Virus record (IMG/VR): IMGVR_UViG_3300043416_000086
Location: 1 to 36,924 of that record
Strand: one strand, 5' to 3'
Source: a virus
Lineage: Duplodnaviria > Caudoviricetes
DNA: 36,924 nucleotides
The notes under the pieces were generated by a model that saw only the letters and a list, made by a program, of their open reading frames with translations, had not been told where the DNA came from and made no database searches. Positions within the stretch are counted from its first letter, which is position 1. Each line of letters opens with the position of its first letter. Of this stretch, positions 2,688 to 36,924 are shown one piece after another. The position numbers were made by a program, and so were the translations under genes.

Positions 2688-4418
2688 TTATAAAGCCCCA
2701 TACGCATACGACTTATCCGTAGCGTAAATGTTAAAATCAGCAACTAATAACAATGTAGCCGCAGCGCCTGCTGGTCTAGTAAAACGAATTAATAATGAAG
2801 ATGCAAACTCATCATCAAAACCACCCGCACCTGTACCTGACGATGGAAGTACGTTAATTGGCACAAAATAAAACTTTCTACGCCAAGTTAAAGTAGCTCC
2901 ATCAGCAGGGTTTATTAAAGGAAGCACAGCAAGTCTAGAGTTCATTACATCGTTTGCAGTAAGACTTGGCTCAAGCGCATTTGGGAATAAACTTACAAAG
3001 CAATCGGCAGTATTTGCAGCAACCATAAAACTGATCATTATGACTTTGTTTCTGTATTGGGAAACATCTAACGTATAGGCAAAAGTTAATTCGCCTGTTG
3101 CTGAAGAATCGCCTAGTTGAGGGCCTGAATAACCAAGATAGGAAAAAGCTTGGGTTGTTAATTTTTTAACCCCAGATCCGCTTGCAGTCCATCCAGTAGG
3201 CGACCAAGGGTTTGCATCTGCCGTACTTTTCCATATATCATTAGCCGAATAAACTAAACGACTAAATTCAGGGTATACGCGGTTAGGTGAAGTGTATACT
3301 CCACCGTACCCGCCAATAGGCCAATTATCCCTAACTATGTTGTTGTAGCCTAAATCGGGATTTTCATTAAGCCATGCAGGATATAAAGCTGTTGCAGAAT
3401 AATTTAACGTATTTTGAACAACTTGTATGTACCCAACTTTTCCTGTTCCAATGCCGTTAAATCCAGCTTGAACTAATTTGGTTGTGTCTAACGATATGGT
3501 AGCAAATATGTTGTTTGAGATAATTATCCCATAGACGTTACGAGCGTCATTGCTTTGAATTTCAATGATTCCATAGCCTGCCGCAGAATCACTTTCAAAC
3601 CAACAATCTTGAACTGTAATTGCAGCAGAATCATCGGTAATGCCAGGGCCACCCCCACTACTATCAATTAAAATAGCACTTCTTGTATAAGGACTAAAGT
3701 AGCAGCGTTTTGTGTCTGCACCTTCACAATGATTCAAGGTTAAAGAATTTAGGTGATATCCAAGCCAGCAATTTTGAATTGTAAAATCTTCGCAAAATCC
3801 TTTTGCCAAAGGAATTATAGTTCCATAAGGTGCTGGGTTTTGACTGCCGTTATTATATATACCGCTACCATTACTTAAACCATAAATATTGCAATTATTT
3901 ACATAATACTCACTTGACCCAATAAAATAAATACCATGAGTACAAGCATTGATTAATAAGTTGTCAAAATAACATCGCCATATTTTTTGGCAATAAATAC
4001 CTATGGTTGCAATGCTGTTACCAGAAATAGCCAAGTCACGAATAAATACTTGTAAAACACGACCATCATTGCTATTAAGTGTAGTGGTATCACCTTCTAA
4101 AGTTATTACTGCTGTTGCACTTCCTGCTTTTTTACTAAGAACAGAACTTGGCCCTGTACCTGCTAAAACAATGTTTAAATATCCCTCTGGCAAAGTAATT
4201 CCAGAAACAAGAAAAGTTCCCGCAGGAAAAAATACTGTGCCTGGAATTGTTTGTTGCCCCATACCTTGAGCATTTGTAGTCCTTGCTGCAAGGGCTGCAG
4301 TAATTGTAGCTTGAATTGCACTTGTGTCATCAGTAACGCCATCTCCAATAGCACCATAATCCAGCACGTTAAAAACCGCACCGCTAATCATTGAATAAGT
4401 TGCTTTTGTTAATGCCAT
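2688..4418 (-). CDS. Tailspike / polysaccharide depolymerase (pectate-lyase-like beta-helix)
   Basis: 576 aa. VFNVLDYGAIGDGVTDDTSAIQ and VFFPAGTF motifs, Asn/Cys ladder repeats, short MALTKATYSMI anchor. Confidence 0.85.
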   Translation of the reverse strand: MALTKATYSMISGAVFNVLDYGAIGDGVTDDTSAIQATITAALAARTTNAQGMGQQTIPGTVFFPAGTFLVSGITLPEGYLNIVLAGTGPSSVLSKKAGSATAVITLEGDTTTLNSNDGRVLQVFIRDLAISGNSIATIGIYCQKIWRCYFDNLLINACTHGIYFIGSSEYYVNNCNIYGLSNGSGIYNNGSQNPAPYGTIIPLAKGFCEDFTIQNCWLGYHLNSLTLNHCEGADTKRCYFSPYTRSAILIDSSGGGPGITDDSAAITVQDCWFESDSAAGYGIIEIQSNDARNVYGIIISNNIFATISLDTTKLVQAGFNGIGTGKVGYIQVVQNTLNYSATALYPAWLNENPDLGYNNIVRDNWPIGGYGGVYTSPNRVYPEFSRLVYSANDIWKSTADANPWSPTGWTASGSGVKKLTTQAFSYLGYSGPQLGDSSATGELTFAYTLDVSQYRNKVIMISFMVAANTADCFVSLFPNALEPSLTANDVMNSRLAVLPLINPADGATLTWRRKFYFVPINVLPSSGTGAGGFDDEFASSLLIRFTRPAGAAATLLLVADFNIYATDKSYAYGAL

Positions 4419-4427
4419 GATTTTTCC

Positions 4428-5672
4428 TTAAATGACTTTTACAATGATTTTTGCTCTGCCATCATTTTCAATAGCAATAACTTTACCTATAGCAATCTTG
4501 TATTGATCAAAGGTTGGATTACTTATTGCTTCGCCTTTGATTAAGCCATTATTGTTCACAGGAATAATGTACTGCCCTGCTATTGCTCCAGTAACATTTA
4601 CTGGAACTTGACCTGAAAAAGAAATTCGGTCAACAAGCTGACGGGCGGCTTCTAGCGCGGCATTGAACGTGTCTTTTTCTTCTTGGGTTGCATCATCATT
4701 AAGTTTTGCTAAACCTAAAGACTCTTCATTTCCCCAAGTATCACCACCAACATAAGACGGGTCTGTTGACTTAACAACGAATGTCACCGAATCAGCAAAT
4801 ACATTGGTCAGTTTTCCATTTGCATCAATGCCAACCACATCACCTTTGGCGATAGTAAAATCACCCGCTTTGGTCATATATTCAGCGTAGTCAGCGCCAG
4901 ATGCGTTTACAGTACCGCCAGCATTTATGCTTCTGGCATTTGCGGCGGCTCGACCAACCCACAGAGCCGCAACTGCCCCGTTATAGCTTTCTGTAGATAC
5001 TGAGTTAACAACAAGAGAATTAACTTTTGTCCCGTTGTTGTTTCTCATAATGCAATAAACAACACCTTCAGCACCTACTGCTAGTTCAACATCCAATACA
5101 CCAGCAGCAGAAGAAGCTAAATTAATGCCTAAGTTTCCATCCCATGTTAAAGCCGAGCTATCAGTTAATAATCCACTAGCCCCTGCATAAGTTATTCGAC
5201 CACTTGTTAACCCTGCATTTGTAATTGATGTTGTTGCATTAACAGTAGTAAAACGCCCTGTTGCCGCCGTCGTAGCCCCAACAGAAGTGTTGTTGATAGT
5301 GCTGGCTGCTGTAGGATTAATGGTCAAAGCCCCCGCAGGGCTAATTGCTACGGTACCTGTGCCTGTAGGGCTAATTGCTACGGCAGCATTGGCAGGAGTA
5401 ATATTGGTGGCTACAGAAAGGGTAATGTTATCGCCGCCGCCTGCACCTAAAGAAAGTTGCGTTGTGCCACTAGAATTTTTAAGTGTTAACCCACCTGAGT
5501 TTGTTGCCTGTACCGCCGCAGTAGTTAAACTTGTTGCCGCTATATCACGACCAGCAGTCAAATTCGCAACGGACACTTGTTTGGTAGTGCTGCTTTGAAC
5601 AATAGGTAAAACTTCGGTTCCCGCAAGCGGGACGGTAGACGCTGGTAAAGCGCTAATTTTTGAGTCGGCCAT
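4428..5672 (-). CDS. Tail fibre with C-terminal intramolecular chaperone (Peptidase G2-like)
   Basis: 414 aa. Gly/Thr/Ala-rich shaft, GADYAEY...GDVVG...FSGQVPVNV autocleavage-domain motifs, N-terminal KISALP...LPIVQ. Confidence 0.8.
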   Translation of the reverse strand: MADSKISALPASTVPLAGTEVLPIVQSSTTKQVSVANLTAGRDIAATSLTTAAVQATNSGGLTLKNSSGTTQLSLGAGGGDNITLSVATNITPANAAVAISPTGTGTVAISPAGALTINPTAASTINNTSVGATTAATGRFTTVNATTSITNAGLTSGRITYAGASGLLTDSSALTWDGNLGINLASSAAGVLDVELAVGAEGVVYCIMRNNNGTKVNSLVVNSVSTESYNGAVAALWVGRAAANARSINAGGTVNASGADYAEYMTKAGDFTIAKGDVVGIDANGKLTNVFADSVTFVVKSTDPSYVGGDTWGNEESLGLAKLNDDATQEEKDTFNAALEAARQLVDRISFSGQVPVNVTGAIAGQYIIPVNNNGLIKGEAISNPTFDQYKIAIGKVIAIENDGRAKIIVKVI

Positions 5673-5683
5673 AATATTTCCTG

Positions 5684-6178
5684 TTAGTTATACATTACTT
5701 CAATTTTAGAAGTTACGGGAGGCGCTTCAGAAAAAGTAATTGATGCGTTTGTTACTGAATAAGTATCTTTATTTTGATATACGCCATTAATATAAATTTG
5801 AGTGCTATTTTCACTTAAAGGCGAAACAGGTAAGGTAAAAATAGTTTGCGTGCCGTTGCCCGTAAAATTAAATATTAAATCCGTATTACCTACTGCAAAA
5901 ACATTGTCATAGGTTGCTATAGTTACATTAGTAGAAGTAGCAAGTATAAATTTATACGTTCCTGACGTTAACCAAATTTCACCGCCTGGTACGCGCCCTG
6001 CAGAATTTAAAATAATTGGGTTAGGATGAGCAACAGTACCTAAGCTACTTGTGTAAGTTGTTTTAGGCGTAGTTGTTCCTGCTGCGTAACTGTAGATTAG
6101 CCCGCCTGCTAATGGCACACCATCGTCAGTAAAAAACTGCGCTCCGACCCCCGCAAATAACGATATACTAACCGCCAT
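5684..6178 (-). CDS. Tailspike head-binding-like adaptor protein (164 aa)
   Basis: QFFTDDGVPLAGG.IYSYAAGT...NPIILNSAGR resembles podovirus particle-binding domains. C-terminal FTGNG...INGVYQ...FSEAPP module, no catalytic domain. Confidence 0.65.
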   Translation of the reverse strand: MAVSISLFAGVGAQFFTDDGVPLAGGLIYSYAAGTTTPKTTYTSSLGTVAHPNPIILNSAGRVPGGEIWLTSGTYKFILATSTNVTIATYDNVFAVGNTDLIFNFTGNGTQTIFTLPVSPLSENSTQIYINGVYQNKDTYSVTNASITFSEAPPVTSKIEVMYN

Positions 6179-6181
6179 AAA

Positions 6182-6346
6182 TTACTCCAACAAAATAAGC
6201 CCGTTATCTTCTTGTACAAGATTATTACTGGCTTCAGTTAAAAGGTTTGATACGGATCCGCCACTATCACGAGTGCCTGAAAATAACGTAATTACACTAC
6301 CTAAACCGATAGCTACTCCATTACGTAGGGCAACTCCCCAACTCAT
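6182..6346 (-). CDS. Small virion-associated protein with LLTE motif (54 aa, not in ORF track)
   Basis: MSWGVALRNGVAIGLGSVITLFSGTRDSGGSVSNLLTEASNNLVQEDNGLILLE*. ATGA overlap with the upstream stop, fills the gap exactly. Confidence 0.8.
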   Translation of the reverse strand: MSWGVALRNGVAIGLGSVITLFSGTRDSGGSVSNLLTEASNNLVQEDNGLILLE

Positions 6347-6645
6347 CGAATATTAATTGGTTTGCAATACACGTCGCCGCTATCCGTAACGCGGATTGCA
6401 CTTACTCGCCACGGGGCGCCTGTGCCTGGCGGTACTGTAAACGGGATTGGGGTAAAAGCTGGTATTGGTGTGCTAGCAGTAGTAGCTGTAACGCCTTCAC
6501 CCACTAAAATGTATGCTGGTGTAGTTGACCATACAACCACACCTTGTGGGCCTGCGCCCCAAGTAGCTGTAGAACCTGCGGTGCCAGTATATGCCGCAGT
6601 ACGACCAGGGTAATTGTCATCGGCTAACGGTCTAAGTAACTCCAT
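6343..6645 (-). CDS. Hypothetical small beta-rich virion protein (100 aa)
   Basis: AAGGAG RBS, in the structural operon, rich in Thr/Ala/Gly/Pro. Confidence 0.7.
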   Translation of the reverse strand: MELLRPLADDNYPGRTAAYTGTAGSTATWGAGPQGVVVWSTTPAYILVGEGVTATTASTPIPAFTPIPFTVPPGTGAPWRVSAIRVTDSGDVYCKPINIR

Positions 6646-6656
6646 TACATTTCTCC

Positions 6657-7019
6657 TTATGCTAAGAACCTTAGCTTGTACAATGTCGATAAATATAACT
6701 CGATAATACCATCAATTAAGTTCTGCAACGGTGCATCGTCTTTATCGCATACATCGTAACGCACAGATTCAATTTCGGCAAGTTGATTTTCTAAAAATTC
6801 AACCACATTTGATGTTTTTTTGGCGGACATCAGGCTGATTGGCCCTACTAGACCATGCCTGCCTTGATAAGCCTCGGCAAAACTATCAGCTAAATCAATG
6901 ATATTTTCATAAAATTTCTGTAAAGCCTTGTGTTTTGCGTAACTTCTAGTGTTTAAATGCACACTATGCGTTACATCACGGGCTAAAAAGAATAATCCGA
7001 TAAAATCTGCGGCTTTCAT
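6657..7019 (-). CDS. Dps/ferritin-like four-helix protein (DUF5856-like)
   Basis: H18/H21...H30-x14-D45-x3-E49 spacing resembles Dps ferroxidase ligands. Helical, ATGA-coupled to the portal gene. Confidence 0.65.
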   Translation of the reverse strand: MKAADFIGLFFLARDVTHSVHLNTRSYAKHKALQKFYENIIDLADSFAEAYQGRHGLVGPISLMSAKKTSNVVEFLENQLAEIESVRYDVCDKDDAPLQNLIDGIIELYLSTLYKLRFLA

Positions 7020-31780: not shown

Positions 31781-32683
31781 TTATTCTAGCAATAAGTTGT
31801 TATATGTTGCTGCTTGCGTTGTAATCCAGCTTGTGCCATCTGACACAATGGTTGCCCAATTACCTGCTACGTTATCTAATATGGCTGTACCCGCAGCCCC
31901 ACCTGCCCTTGATACAACATTACTAGACGCTGACACTAACGATTGATTCTGATAGTTAATAAAATATAAAACCCGCCCTGTGTTGGCCGATGGCGACGGT
32001 AGCGTAACCGTGCAAGTAGAGCCTGTCTTATTGTTTATTAACCATGTATCTGTAGATGCTACACTAAAATCAGCCGTTTTGGTAACTGGTGCGTTTGTTG
32101 TTACGGTGCCACTTGTGCTTAACGTGCCAGCTGCAAAGGTTAACCCTGTGCCTACGGTAACATTACTAAACCCACCCGCACCGTTGCCGTACAAAATAGA
32201 CGTGCCACTTGTAGCTGGTGCGTAATCTGTACCGCTTACAGCTGCGCTGATTGCTGTACCGTTGCCTTTAAGAATACCTGTAATGGTTGTGGTTAGCGTA
32301 ATAGCAGGTGTAGTAGTGCTTGTAGCTACCGTACCCGCAAAGCCGTTAGCTGATACAACAGACACGCTAGTAACCGTACCGCCTGTACCCGTAATAGTTA
32401 TGCTACCCGCGCCGTTGGCTATAGTTATACCTGCGCCTGCGGTCAAAGTTTTTAAATCATATCTTTGCCCCGCTGTATTACCAATTAATAATTGACCATT
32501 TAAAGGGTAACTACTTAATCCTGTACCGCCATTCGGGATTTGAACAATGCCTAAATTAGCGCCTACAATTGAATAGATGTTGTTAAAGAACCTAAACCAT
32601 TCCCGTGACATTAAACCTGTGCGTGGATCTATTAATTCAACTCTAGGCGCAGGAATCTGCGTAATGTTAATTGGATCAGGCAT
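31781..32683 (-). CDS. Tail needle / fibre-like protein
   Basis: Likely start MPDPINI at 32683. G.MSREW.RFF N-terminus, Gly/Thr-rich fibre modules, position of P22 gp26. Confidence 0.7.
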   Translation of the reverse strand: MPDPINITQIPAPRVELIDPRTGLMSREWFRFFNNIYSIVGANLGIVQIPNGGTGLSSYPLNGQLLIGNTAGQRYDLKTLTAGAGITIANGAGSITITGTGGTVTSVSVVSANGFAGTVATSTTTPAITLTTTITGILKGNGTAISAAVSGTDYAPATSGTSILYGNGAGGFSNVTVGTGLTFAAGTLSTSGTVTTNAPVTKTADFSVASTDTWLINNKTGSTCTVTLPSPSANTGRVLYFINYQNQSLVSASSNVVSRAGGAAGTAILDNVAGNWATIVSDGTSWITTQAATYNNLLLE

Positions 32684-34313
32684 TAGTTGGTGACAACAGT
32701 ATTTCAGCGTTGGTAATTGCAATCTTTACTGGATCGGTACCTGATACTTCATATACACGATCACGTAACTTTTGTGTCATGCCAAGCCGACGCCAAAATG
32801 TACGAAAGCCATACTGCCCAATTTTGCCCATTGACGACCAATGTTCGTTTGACCAAGTATGACCAGCATCGTCTGACCAACGCAACATGGCTTGAGGATT
32901 ATACCCAGGCGAGGCAGGATAGCCAATAGTCTCTAAAATATACCCGTTAATATCATCAGAACTTGTATTAGTGCCTAAAAGTTCAAACCCATCATTGGAT
33001 TCAGTAGTTAATTCAAGTCCAGCTTGTGTAACTAAATTAGTTTGCACATACTCAGCAATAATTTCTTTGCCATCTTCTGTTGCTATATCTTCAGATTCAT
33101 ACGCGGGGTATAGTTCTAACCCAACGCCTGTTTCAGCGTTAAGTTGCAAAGTATGTTGTGCTGTACGTTTAAAGTTATTTTGTCCTGGCATTAATGCGCG
33201 CCATGATCGTAACCATTTTTGGGGTTGCCCCTTATCTGCGTAAGTATTTAAGTCAAGTTGATAAATATCACCATTTGCATAATCACCAACAATAATCGTA
33301 CCGCCAAAGTTACATTGGTTATTGCTACGGTGTCTTGTAAAGTTGCCATCAATAAAACCTGCACGTTCATGCCATGCTTGCGTAGCTACGTCATAAACCC
33401 ATGTGGCGTTGCCTGTTGGAAAACTAAGCACATAAAACGCGTGGCCGTCTTGTTGGTATGTATACGCCACCGCATCGGATATATTGCCGTACTGTTGTAT
33501 TTGCCATTCAATTGCATGGGTAGAAACCCGAACACCTGTGTAGCCGTTAGCACGGTAGACTATACCTTGACCACGGGCATCTGTACCTAGCCAAAATAAA
33601 CCGTTATCTAACTTAGCAACTGAAAATGCTGCAACGCAACCAATTTCATTAAAAGCACCTTGAATACGCGTTAAAGGAAAATCGGTTGCACCTGAGTCAT
33701 ACCAAACTTCTACAGAATCTGTACCAAACACCCATAACTCACGGTGATCTGATATAAGAGCAACCACGCCGTCAGGTGAGCCTTCAGCGCTAGCAAAGTC
33801 TAACGGATCAACCGATGTGCCATCTAGTAGCTGGGAAACCCATATCTTTTGACTATTTGGCTCGTTAAACACAAAATAGCCGTCTAAATACGATACGGTT
33901 ACAGCGCCTGCAAAATCAGGATCCGTAATTTTAGCAAATACATTAGTTACTTCGTTATAGATAAAACCGTCAGGATTACACGCTAAAAATATTTGTGTGC
34001 CGTTGTCGGCAATAGATACGGGGCCTGTGCCTGTTACATTACCTAAAAGTATTGGTGTGTTTCCAATACCTGTTAGTTTATAAAACTCTTGCCCCGATAC
34101 TACATAGAAATCTGAACCATTTGTTTGATGCGCCCACAATGCTCGAATAGGGCCAGTACCTACAGTCTGTAAAAACTTTAACCCAGGCGCGCGTTGTAAA
34201 AACCCTGTTTCTTCTCCTTCAGTTACAACTTCAGGGAAAAGGTTAACCATACGGGCATCCGCTGCATTAACGCTACGTGCAACATACGACTGACCTAAAA
34301 TCGGGGTTTTCAT
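32676..34313 (-). CDS. Tail hub / packaged-DNA stabilisation protein, P22 gp10-like
   Basis: Beta-propeller-like. DFASAEGSPD, GH.FYVL.FP....W.YD and LRWSDD.G.TWS motifs. Confidence 0.88.
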   Translation of the reverse strand: MKTPILGQSYVARSVNAADARMVNLFPEVVTEGEETGFLQRAPGLKFLQTVGTGPIRALWAHQTNGSDFYVVSGQEFYKLTGIGNTPILLGNVTGTGPVSIADNGTQIFLACNPDGFIYNEVTNVFAKITDPDFAGAVTVSYLDGYFVFNEPNSQKIWVSQLLDGTSVDPLDFASAEGSPDGVVALISDHRELWVFGTDSVEVWYDSGATDFPLTRIQGAFNEIGCVAAFSVAKLDNGLFWLGTDARGQGIVYRANGYTGVRVSTHAIEWQIQQYGNISDAVAYTYQQDGHAFYVLSFPTGNATWVYDVATQAWHERAGFIDGNFTRHRSNNQCNFGGTIIVGDYANGDIYQLDLNTYADKGQPQKWLRSWRALMPGQNNFKRTAQHTLQLNAETGVGLELYPAYESEDIATEDGKEIIAEYVQTNLVTQAGLELTTESNDGFELLGTNTSSDDINGYILETIGYPASPGYNPQAMLRWSDDAGHTWSNEHWSSMGKIGQYGFRTFWRRLGMTQKLRDRVYEVSGTDPVKIAITNAEILLSPTNA

Positions 34314-34316
34314 TAT

Positions 34317-34958
34317 TTAGGCAGCTACACCTTTAATTACTGCAAAATTAAACACGGGCGTTTCTGTAGTCGTTCCGCCTGTAGTTCTAAAAGTAATATT
34401 AAAACTACCCGCAGCAACAGCAGTAACCATTAAATCATAAAGATCAGTACCTGATTTTTGGTTAAGGATAATTACATCAGTTGCAGCCACGGTGCTGTTT
34501 GTTACCGTAAAAGTTGCTGCGGTACCAGAGCCTGCCGCGCTTACTAACGTAATTGAACCAGTTGTTTTGTTTAGTGTTACGCCTGTAGTTCGGCTAGTTG
34601 CTTGCGTAACTGTACCACCAGCTCCAGTTGCATAGCCTACGCCTGCTGTACCCGCTGAAACAATTGCGCCAGTTGCAGTTAAGCTAGTTAATGTTGGACT
34701 ACCTGTGCAATTAGATATATTGCCCGATGTTGGCGTACCTAATACTGGCGTAACCATTACCATGCTAGTGCTAGTACAAGCAGAAATATTGCCTGAAGCT
34801 ACGGTGCCGAGCGCAGGTGTTATAAGCGTAGGGCTTGTAAACAACGCATTTATAGATAATTGTTTAGTCGTGCTGCTAGCTGCTTGCACAATTGGCAATA
34901 CATCAGCCCCAGCTTGGGAAGTTGCAACGGGTAAAGCTGAAATAGCAATCGTAGCCAT
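34317..34958 (-). CDS. Short fibre-like virion protein (213 aa)
   Basis: N-terminal ISALP...LPIVQ, TP.LGT repeats and GGTVTQATSRTTGVTLNK C-terminal knob. Confidence 0.75.
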   Translation of the reverse strand: MATIAISALPVATSQAGADVLPIVQAASSTTKQLSINALFTSPTLITPALGTVASGNISACTSTSMVMVTPVLGTPTSGNISNCTGSPTLTSLTATGAIVSAGTAGVGYATGAGGTVTQATSRTTGVTLNKTTGSITLVSAAGSGTAATFTVTNSTVAATDVIILNQKSGTDLYDLMVTAVAAGSFNITFRTTGGTTTETPVFNFAVIKGVAA

Positions 34959-36039: not shown

Positions 36040-36641
36040 TACACGGCGTCCGAAACCATAATGTAGTACGGTGTGCCGTTGTCAGCCACAATTTTGATAA
36101 CGTGAGTAACAGCAGCTGCTGCTTTGGCACGGAAAATTGTGTTTGACGCTGGCGCTGGCATATTAAGCAACGAACCAACTTTTACGGTGTTGCTATCAGT
36201 TACACGCATAAATGCAGTAACGCCAGGCAGAGTTACGCCAGCAGCAAAATTGGAGTCCAACTGAATGGCTGCCAAAGTACCGCCAGGAGTAGCATCGTTA
36301 CCACCTAAAGTAGCACGGATTGCGTTAGCTGCGCCAGAAATGCTTGCGCTGTTACCGTTAATCTCGCAAGAAATGTGGGCGCCATTGATTGTGCCTGCAG
36401 TAGCCGCATTAGTACCTGTGACTACAGAAAAAGCACGTAAAGTTTCGCCTGAACCTGTAGAGGTAAAGGTTAACTTTTCGTAATTTAAACGGGTATCGCC
36501 AGAAGTAGCTGAAGTAGTAGCATAGCTACCATTTAAAACGCCTGCTGAAGTAATAGAGATAGGATCGTTAGAACTACCAACTTGATACGAATCTAATTGT
36601 GGATCGGCGTATGCAACGCCAATAGGTTTGTTATTTGCCAT
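36039..36641 (-). CDS. Putative capsid-associated fibre / decoration protein (200 aa)
   Basis: AAGGAG RBS, Gly/Ala/Thr/Ser-rich, C-terminal IKI...GT.YYI fibre-tip-like motif. Confidence 0.65.
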   Translation of the reverse strand: MANNKPIGVAYADPQLDSYQVGSSNDPISITSAGVLNGSYATTSATSGDTRLNYEKLTFTSTGSGETLRAFSVVTGTNAATAGTINGAHISCEINGNSASISGAANAIRATLGGNDATPGGTLAAIQLDSNFAAGVTLPGVTAFMRVTDSNTVKVGSLLNMPAPASNTIFRAKAAAAVTHVIKIVADNGTPYYIMVSDAV

Positions 36642-36924
36642 GATTAAAACTCCTTTATTATTTCCAAAAAAAGTTAATCCCGCCCCAAGGGGCGGGTATT
36701 ACATTAACCAGCTACGCGATAAAATACATATGTTGCATCGGCAGTCTTACGAACACGCCAAGTACAAGATGTAACCGCAAGAACTGCTGCAACGCCAACC
36801 AAAGTACAACCTGTGTTAGCAGTTAGAGTTGCGGTGTCGGTTGAGTCTAAATTAATAATATTAAACTCAAAAGAACTGTTAACTTTCATACTCGGAAATG
36901 CTGTATCTAATGCGGTTCCAAGAG
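36625..36924. repeat. Terminal direct repeat, right copy (includes the 3' part of the 131-aa gene)
   Basis: Matches 1-300 at 295 of 300 positions. Confidence 0.97.

Follow-up and report, generated by a model that had tools for sequence, protein, structure and literature searches.

The 36,924-base stretch of DNA analysed here (the window) encodes two otherwise unrelated fibres that begin alike, which raises the question of how each of them is held on the virus particle. A sequence-only reading had proposed that acidic LxTE repeats near the fibre genes are sockets, perhaps Ca2+-dependent beta-hairpins, and that the common fibre N-terminus is the plug. We consider that the two motifs probably form a real and widespread docking pair, itself probably unnamed, whose binding is predicted by modelling. 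If true, host-recognition fibres would be attached to virus particles by a widespread and portable means.

The fibre domain and the acidic motif in the window

The window is the genome of a P22/Pam1-like podovirus and encodes a P22-type coat and portal, a gp10-like hub, an adaptor and ejection proteins. Its closest entry in the phage collection is DSL-LC05, described as a metagenome assembly (PMC10611076). The same genes stand at both ends of the record (1-300 and 36625-36924), which fits the assembly overlap of a circular genome. All of the ORFs and peptides quoted in the sequence-only reading were found in place on the minus strand, which also carries the fibres, hub, needle and small proteins with coordinates below.

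Fibre 1 (414 aa; 4428-5672) bears the docking domain in residues 1-38 (5559-5672), and its C-terminal part matches phrog_34132. Fibre 2 (213 aa; 34317-34958) bears a variant of the domain without Lys5 (about 34842-34958). That the two share an N-terminus of about 38 aa was borne out, with 51% identity in the alignment and a whole-protein BLASTP E-value of 1e-4. Alignments give the consensus M-A-[DN]-x-K-I-[ST]-x-L ... [DE]-h-h-P-h-V ... T-K-K, and the profile of this domain (about 38 aa) is referred to here as the plug profile. The monomer is modelled (pLDDT 81) as a hairpin of residues 21-26 and 29-34 followed by a helix at 35-38. Pfam and PHROG scans gave no consistent family for either motif, and neither database contains a family dedicated to the fibre domain.

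The acidic motif consists in the alignments of eight-residue units, h-h-[TQ]-E-x-G-x-x, two full and one short. The repeats described earlier are present in both the 54-aa ORF and the hub insertion, with the period corrected to eight residues and the number to at most three units. They were scored with a matrix trained on other phages (set A, below), which replaced a strict regular expression that undercounted (17/116). The 54-aa ORF (6182-6346) has a hydrophobic N-terminal half and a triple motif at its C-terminus (6185-6244) that scores 36.4, where 99% of control C-termini score below about 4. The gp10-like tail hub (545 aa; 32676-34313; phrog_578; homologous to 9vyg_M and Pam1 7eeq_1) has an acidic insertion of about 65 aa (about 32898-33110), in which two double units (33051-33086 and 33000-33035) score 11.3 and 5.9 by the same matrix. 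A gene with the acidic motif does lie near each fibre, with an adjustment: the hub adjoins fibre 2, and the 54-aa ORF lies two genes upstream of fibre 1. Between the latter two sits the gene of a 164-aa protein (5684-6178) with a Pam1-type tailspike head-binding domain (7eeq_A, E 1.3e-8), which is outside the motif pair.

The protein in the needle position, after the hub (31781-32683; phrog_31660), most likely starts at the ATG at 32683 (300 aa) and has no PDB sequence match. It ends, as had been pointed out, in one hydrophobic-Glu unit (31784-31801), but its membership is uncertain and the idea of a third fibre site gained no support: among 47 needles classed, the 13 that end in the unit all have one type of terminal domain and occur in all hub classes, so that the unit follows the terminal domain and not fibre 2. 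This C-terminus scores below -10 by the matrix because it has one unit and no tandem, and a single terminal unit could act as three in a trimer. Short needles with a different terminal domain (L306, L310, L315, L325) also end in a hydrophobic-Glu unit, possibly an independent gain.

Linkage of the two motifs across phages

The linkage was followed from both sides. Set A, the training set, comprises 122 loci chosen by a DNA pattern of the plug only, and an upstream motif was found in 44 of the 121 loci with enough upstream DNA, compared with 1 of 492 control ends. Set B was held out and comprises 120 loci chosen by a second plug pattern, near-identical loci being retained in both sets, so that p-values for the linkage are inflated by loci that are not independent. 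Here the C-terminus of the upstream gene carries the motif in 28 of 116 loci against 5 of 521 control ends, two of these five lying 93-94 bases before a plug; the remaining 88 of the 116 plug genes have no motif in the gene directly upstream. Single-linkage clustering of 69 motif carriers gave 33 groups (12 in set B), which is an upper bound as some carriers are short fragments. Set C comprises 46 loci chosen by the motif alone. A plug match lies downstream of 19 of its 28 C-terminal motifs, 13 of them in the next gene, although 12 of these 28 loci come from the window's own family; two further next genes resemble divergent plugs by eye, and the opposite strand gave 0 plug matches. By contrast, 17 of 18 internal motifs have no plug within 5 kb and one has. 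Of the checks named by the sequence-only reading (co-occurrence, adjacency and fusion, the last treated below), the linkage across these phages supports the pairing.

Searches by tblastn with the plug alone found the pair in the named phages Erythrobacter phage R6L, pEa_SNUABM_37, S-TIM54 and cyanophage KBS-S-2A, while Moabite, BUCT-ZZ01 and mumin9-1 have a plug but no motif within the genome stretch examined. Among 25 plug records hand-picked for length and for having no adjacent motif, 13 carry the motif elsewhere (7 of the 11 complete ones) and 12 carry it nowhere (4 of the 11). The motif was found in 0 of 22 control records, 5 of which match the plug profile. Because plug records without the motif exist, the pair is strongly linked yet non-obligatory, or some tags are too divergent to detect. 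An S74-selected control set of 79 loci (set E) held 1 locus with both, 1 with the plug only, 3 with the motif only and 74 with neither (p 0.1), and is too poor in either motif to test co-occurrence. From gene context, the three motif-only cases are T4-like neck-protein homologues. In apparent T4-like gp14 neck homologues of aquatic myoviruses (L470 11429, L480 9446, L517 2968), the motif lies about 60 residues before the C-terminus, which suggests that neck fibres may be docked by the tag in these viruses.

The hub of Brucella phage Iz (L573 8662-11046) has a strong motif copy as an insertion near residue 115, unlike the site in the window hub, and its fibre falls below the plug profile threshold. 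A GTDB scan points to no host: of its 8 loci, which lie in metagenome bins whose labels are mixed, 2 have the motif.

Within the window's family, hubs were compared across 80 relatives, the window and DSL-LC05, with 10 loci lacking the adaptor. A plug gene stands between adaptor and hub in 40 of 41 loci with a long insertion, 4 of 21 with a mid-length insertion, 0 of 8 with no insertion and 0 of 2 with unclassed hubs. On a quick tree of 81 hub cores, from which the insertion was left out and in which 75 rows bore both traits, the long insertion and the fibre-2 gene each change 18 times. Among 11 independent pairs on starred branches, the two switch the same way in about 9 and in opposite ways in 0 (p 0.004); the comparison of any insertion with none gave only 3 pairs and was non-significant. 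The insertion and the fibre-2 gene are 1.2 kb apart. Across 24 whole family records, all 17 that bear a plug have the motif. The complete genome G011 bears a single plug, close to the portal, and a single motif, in the hub, with 8.7 kb between them. Fibre 2 and the long insertion are the sole pair in G006, also complete, and fibre 1 with the small ORF is the sole pair in DSL-LC05. Fibre 2, which lacks Lys5, likely docks on the hub insertion.

The 54-aa ORF belongs to Atlas clusters of 105-425 members with no Pfam family. It overlaps the gene of a 100-aa protein (6343-6645) that is, from a model and a fold search, a predicted single jelly roll and a candidate anchor. The 100-aa gene is followed by the acidic ORF in 58 of 59 homologues, and each of the 57 small ORFs occurs at a locus that contains this gene. 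The best of five models of the 100-aa protein reached a pLDDT of 73.5 (the others 44-54); its fold search gave generic matches and no specific one (best Z 8.5), with feature-level leads to DUF7243 and PRD1 spike-N clusters. Placing the pair at the capsid or a vertex is a guess that leans towards the doubtful. At three loci (L029, L081, L082), a different 101-aa gene replaces the 100-aa gene and the small ORF is absent.

Predicted docking and competing explanations

The complex was modelled from three fibre-1 domains (residues 1-56) and one peptide (residues 21-54 of the 54-aa ORF) with no ion, in keeping with the earlier proposal to model a trimer of the domain with the acidic peptide. The model scored 0.92 against 0.02 for the best control, although it may in part owe this to the method's prior exposure to the crAss001 hub described below. 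In calibration, 116 of 157 solved complexes and 2 of 215 mismatched pairs passed the mark, rates that apply only approximately to this job, which used its own alignments and 3+1 chains. Runs agree in at least 95% of contacts, with a partner pLDDT of at least 79. Residues 1-7, 23, 25 and 28-30 are predicted to contact the peptide, the same in all three subunits. In the model, each of the three units is paired with residues 4-6 in a different subunit and also with Thr30, Pro23 and Val25 in a neighbouring one. As one peptide is modelled across all three subunits, the fibre trimer is likely the socket and the triple-repeat peptide the plug, one peptide filling three equivalent sites. The docking of the two motifs proposed from the sequence is therefore supported by linkage, correlated gain and loss and the complex model, with the roles of its partners likely reversed.

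The reading that we prefer, and hold with good though not full confidence, is that the acidic motif is a portable docking tag that binds the fibre trimer. One chain of three tandem eight-residue units would wrap round the three-fold tip of the trimer, with every unit paired to residues 4-6 in one subunit and to the hairpin in the neighbouring one. In this way fibre 2 would be mounted on the six hub insertions and fibre 1 on the 54-aa ORF product, for which the 100-aa jelly-roll protein would be the anchor on the particle.

A possible origin of the pair is indicated by internal copies of the fibre domain. The plug profile matches 36,504 protein clusters at 50% identity, a count that includes internal bead repeats, of which many clusters have up to 22. 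Lys5 is retained in 83% of 95 N-terminal copies against 18% of 126 internal ones. Fusion of the motifs was also found: a single h-h-x-E-S-G unit is joined directly before 11 of 28 internal Lys5 copies, compared with 4 of 243 other copies, the fused form being known from five proteins that are probably one family. A single fused unit per chain gives three units in a trimer, the number found in the tag. Because of this fusion, we infer that fibre domain and tag are a split bead, the fibre domain being the N-terminal copy of a trimeric shaft repeat for which the tag would supply the preceding strand in trans.

Three other explanations have to be weighed against the docking tag. Sockets of acidic, Ca2+-dependent hairpins that receive the fibre N-terminus are now unlikely. 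Among 80 motif rows, only Glu or Gln at unit position 4 is nearly fixed (Glu in 91% and 94%, Gln in the remaining rows) and the turns are rich in Asp, Asn and Gly, as such a site might be, but the pattern Dx[DN]x[DNS]G occurs in 0 of the 80, DxDxDG being the calcium-loop pattern. Moreover, the first unit in the window has no Asp, Gln can replace Glu, the complex model passes without Ca2+, and the Lys5 kept in N-terminal copies puts a protein counter-charge on offer. The calcium part of the sequence-only reading is accordingly unsupported. It is less probable again that the peptide binds the fibre tip during assembly only, as a trimerisation template or chaperone. Many motif carriers are tiny proteins, which speaks for this reading, yet central components of the virion contain the motif as well, namely the hub of the podovirus, T4-like neck-protein homologues, tip proteins of siphoviruses and crAss001 tail hub B.

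The two motifs might also travel together with no binding between the proteins, either as a recombination joint at the DNA level or as two parts of a gene that has been split. Motif and plug are often parted only by a stop and a start codon, and the fibre domain is found as an internal repeat too, both of which fit such a joint. In the window's family, however, the motif is two genes distant from the plug, 1.2 kb into the next gene or 8.7 kb off, and the first 30 bases of the two plug genes are 53% identical. Nucleotide variation by codon position is 0.27, 0.15 and 0.53, highest at the third, among 35 sequences whose selection by the motif pattern favours this result. We regard this explanation as very improbable, the least probable of the three.

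Beyond the docking tag itself, a broader reading is put forward tentatively and falls slightly short of an even chance. It holds that a 20-residue pseudo-trimeric tag derived from a split bead is a general mount in podo-, sipho-, myo-, jumbo- and crAss-like phages, with matched sub-types sorting fibres to different virion sites. The sub-types would be Lys5 fibres with plain triple tags, fibre 2 without that Lys together with the long split insertion in the hub, and Arg-type tags in crassviruses. Should binding follow the model, 20 residues of sequence would reveal the mounting site of a fibre in an uncultured phage, explain how one chain matches a three-fold fibre, and show phages gaining new fibre sites through a small insertion. 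It would also offer a compact trimer-binding tag for protein assembly.

Known fibre anchors and the crAss001 docking hub

The closest solved counterpart was found in crAss001, where two THA (gp38) molecules and a single THB (gp39) hold the gp22 trimer (PDB 7QOJ/7QOL/8CKB), residues 67-107 of gp39 and 1-26 of gp22 lying in the fibre docking hub (PMC10172136). gp39 ends in tandem Arg-x-Thr-Glu-Asp units (residues 95-114) with a motif score of 9.4; 6 of 1013 control ends but 0 of 1000 shuffles score as high, and hhalign aligns it with the motif at E 0.0034 (probability 9.5). Residues 28-58 of gp22 weakly match the plug profile, at E 0.047 with a deeper alignment (A3) against the PDB and an hhalign probability of 24; a single plug and alignments A1, A2 and A5 gave no match in PDB sequence searches. 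All five THB sequences (gp39 and four Steigviridae homologues) have tandem R-x-[TS]-E-[DN] units at the C-terminus, with scores of 3.3-10.2, and among four further crassviruses the fibre matches the plug profile in two and resembles it by eye in a third. In crAss001, tandem acidic units and a fibre domain with a weak likeness to the plug belong to one fibre-docking sub-assembly, but this would be a divergent variant, in which gp22 has an extra N-terminal segment held by the A2B hub. The main-text passages on the docking hub in PMC10172136 name neither motif nor a 3:1 contact. The sequence-only statement that the pairing was uncharacterised needs a caveat: no description of the motif pair was found in the literature covered (mainly open-access main texts), but a probable divergent pair lies within this solved hub. 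Unit position 1 is Arg in gp39, and Asp stands in gp22 where the plug has Ile6 (L586 23106-23450 and 2770-5268). Ile6 touches unit position 1 in the model, so that Arg and Asp are a possible compensatory swap; Arg-type tags occur with ordinary plugs too.

By analogy, the pair may work like known anchors in which a peptide enters a fibre. In the sections of the JBD30 report that treat its anchor (PMC11445458), the baseplate hub's C-terminal end inserts into the gp54 receptor-binding trimer, likewise one chain end at a three-fold axis, although this anchor is a helical bundle with a T7/CBA120-type anchor domain and a tandem repeat goes unreported there. The nozzle-rope of podophage A1002 and its chain-like GP4/VP1 fibres resemble the tag in that an extended nozzle segment binds the fibres by beta-sheet augmentation, but dimers are bound in series along a long rope (PMC13730344). 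Beads of the Milano gp31 and 7-7-1 short tail fibres (8FQC, 9RKV) are trimeric, with a beta-hairpin and a short helix; they are internal, and the Milano fibre attaches through a helical N-terminal domain and disulfides (PMC10811340). Among phage proteins they ranked best in fold searches with the plug monomer, at TM values of 0.54 and 0.50 with rmsd of 1.3 and 1.7 over 35 aligned columns, an E-value of about 5 and a Z of 2.7. These matches are non-significant, and the searches gave no specific match. Further analogues compared were 7-7-1 (PMC12796354), the T4 neck (PMC12929629), PhiXacm4-11 (10.64898/2026.02.16.706137) and PhiGT1 (PMC10386132).

Three other identities for the fibre N-terminus gained no support by sequence. 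A likeness to the T4 fibritin N-terminus was dropped as PDB sequence and fold searches gave no match. The Mtd_N cap matched 0 of 75 plug members with its Pfam model at E 0.1 and was absent from the fold-search results of the 56-aa monomer model. The canonical P22/Pam1 tailspike head-binding domain, a folded domain of about 100 aa that binds a protein surface, is unrelated to the plug and gave no sequence match with it.

That domain is instead present in the 164-aa protein, which probably occupies the canonical tailspike site. The protein combines the head-binding domain with a DUF4183-like domain, and the 576-aa beta-helix spike (2688-4418) begins with a short leader only. The tailspike looks divided between these two proteins, which may form a second, unrelated docking pair. 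A DUF5856 or starvation-inducible ferritin-like gene (6657-7019) lies between the portal and the fibre cluster and is conserved in relatives.
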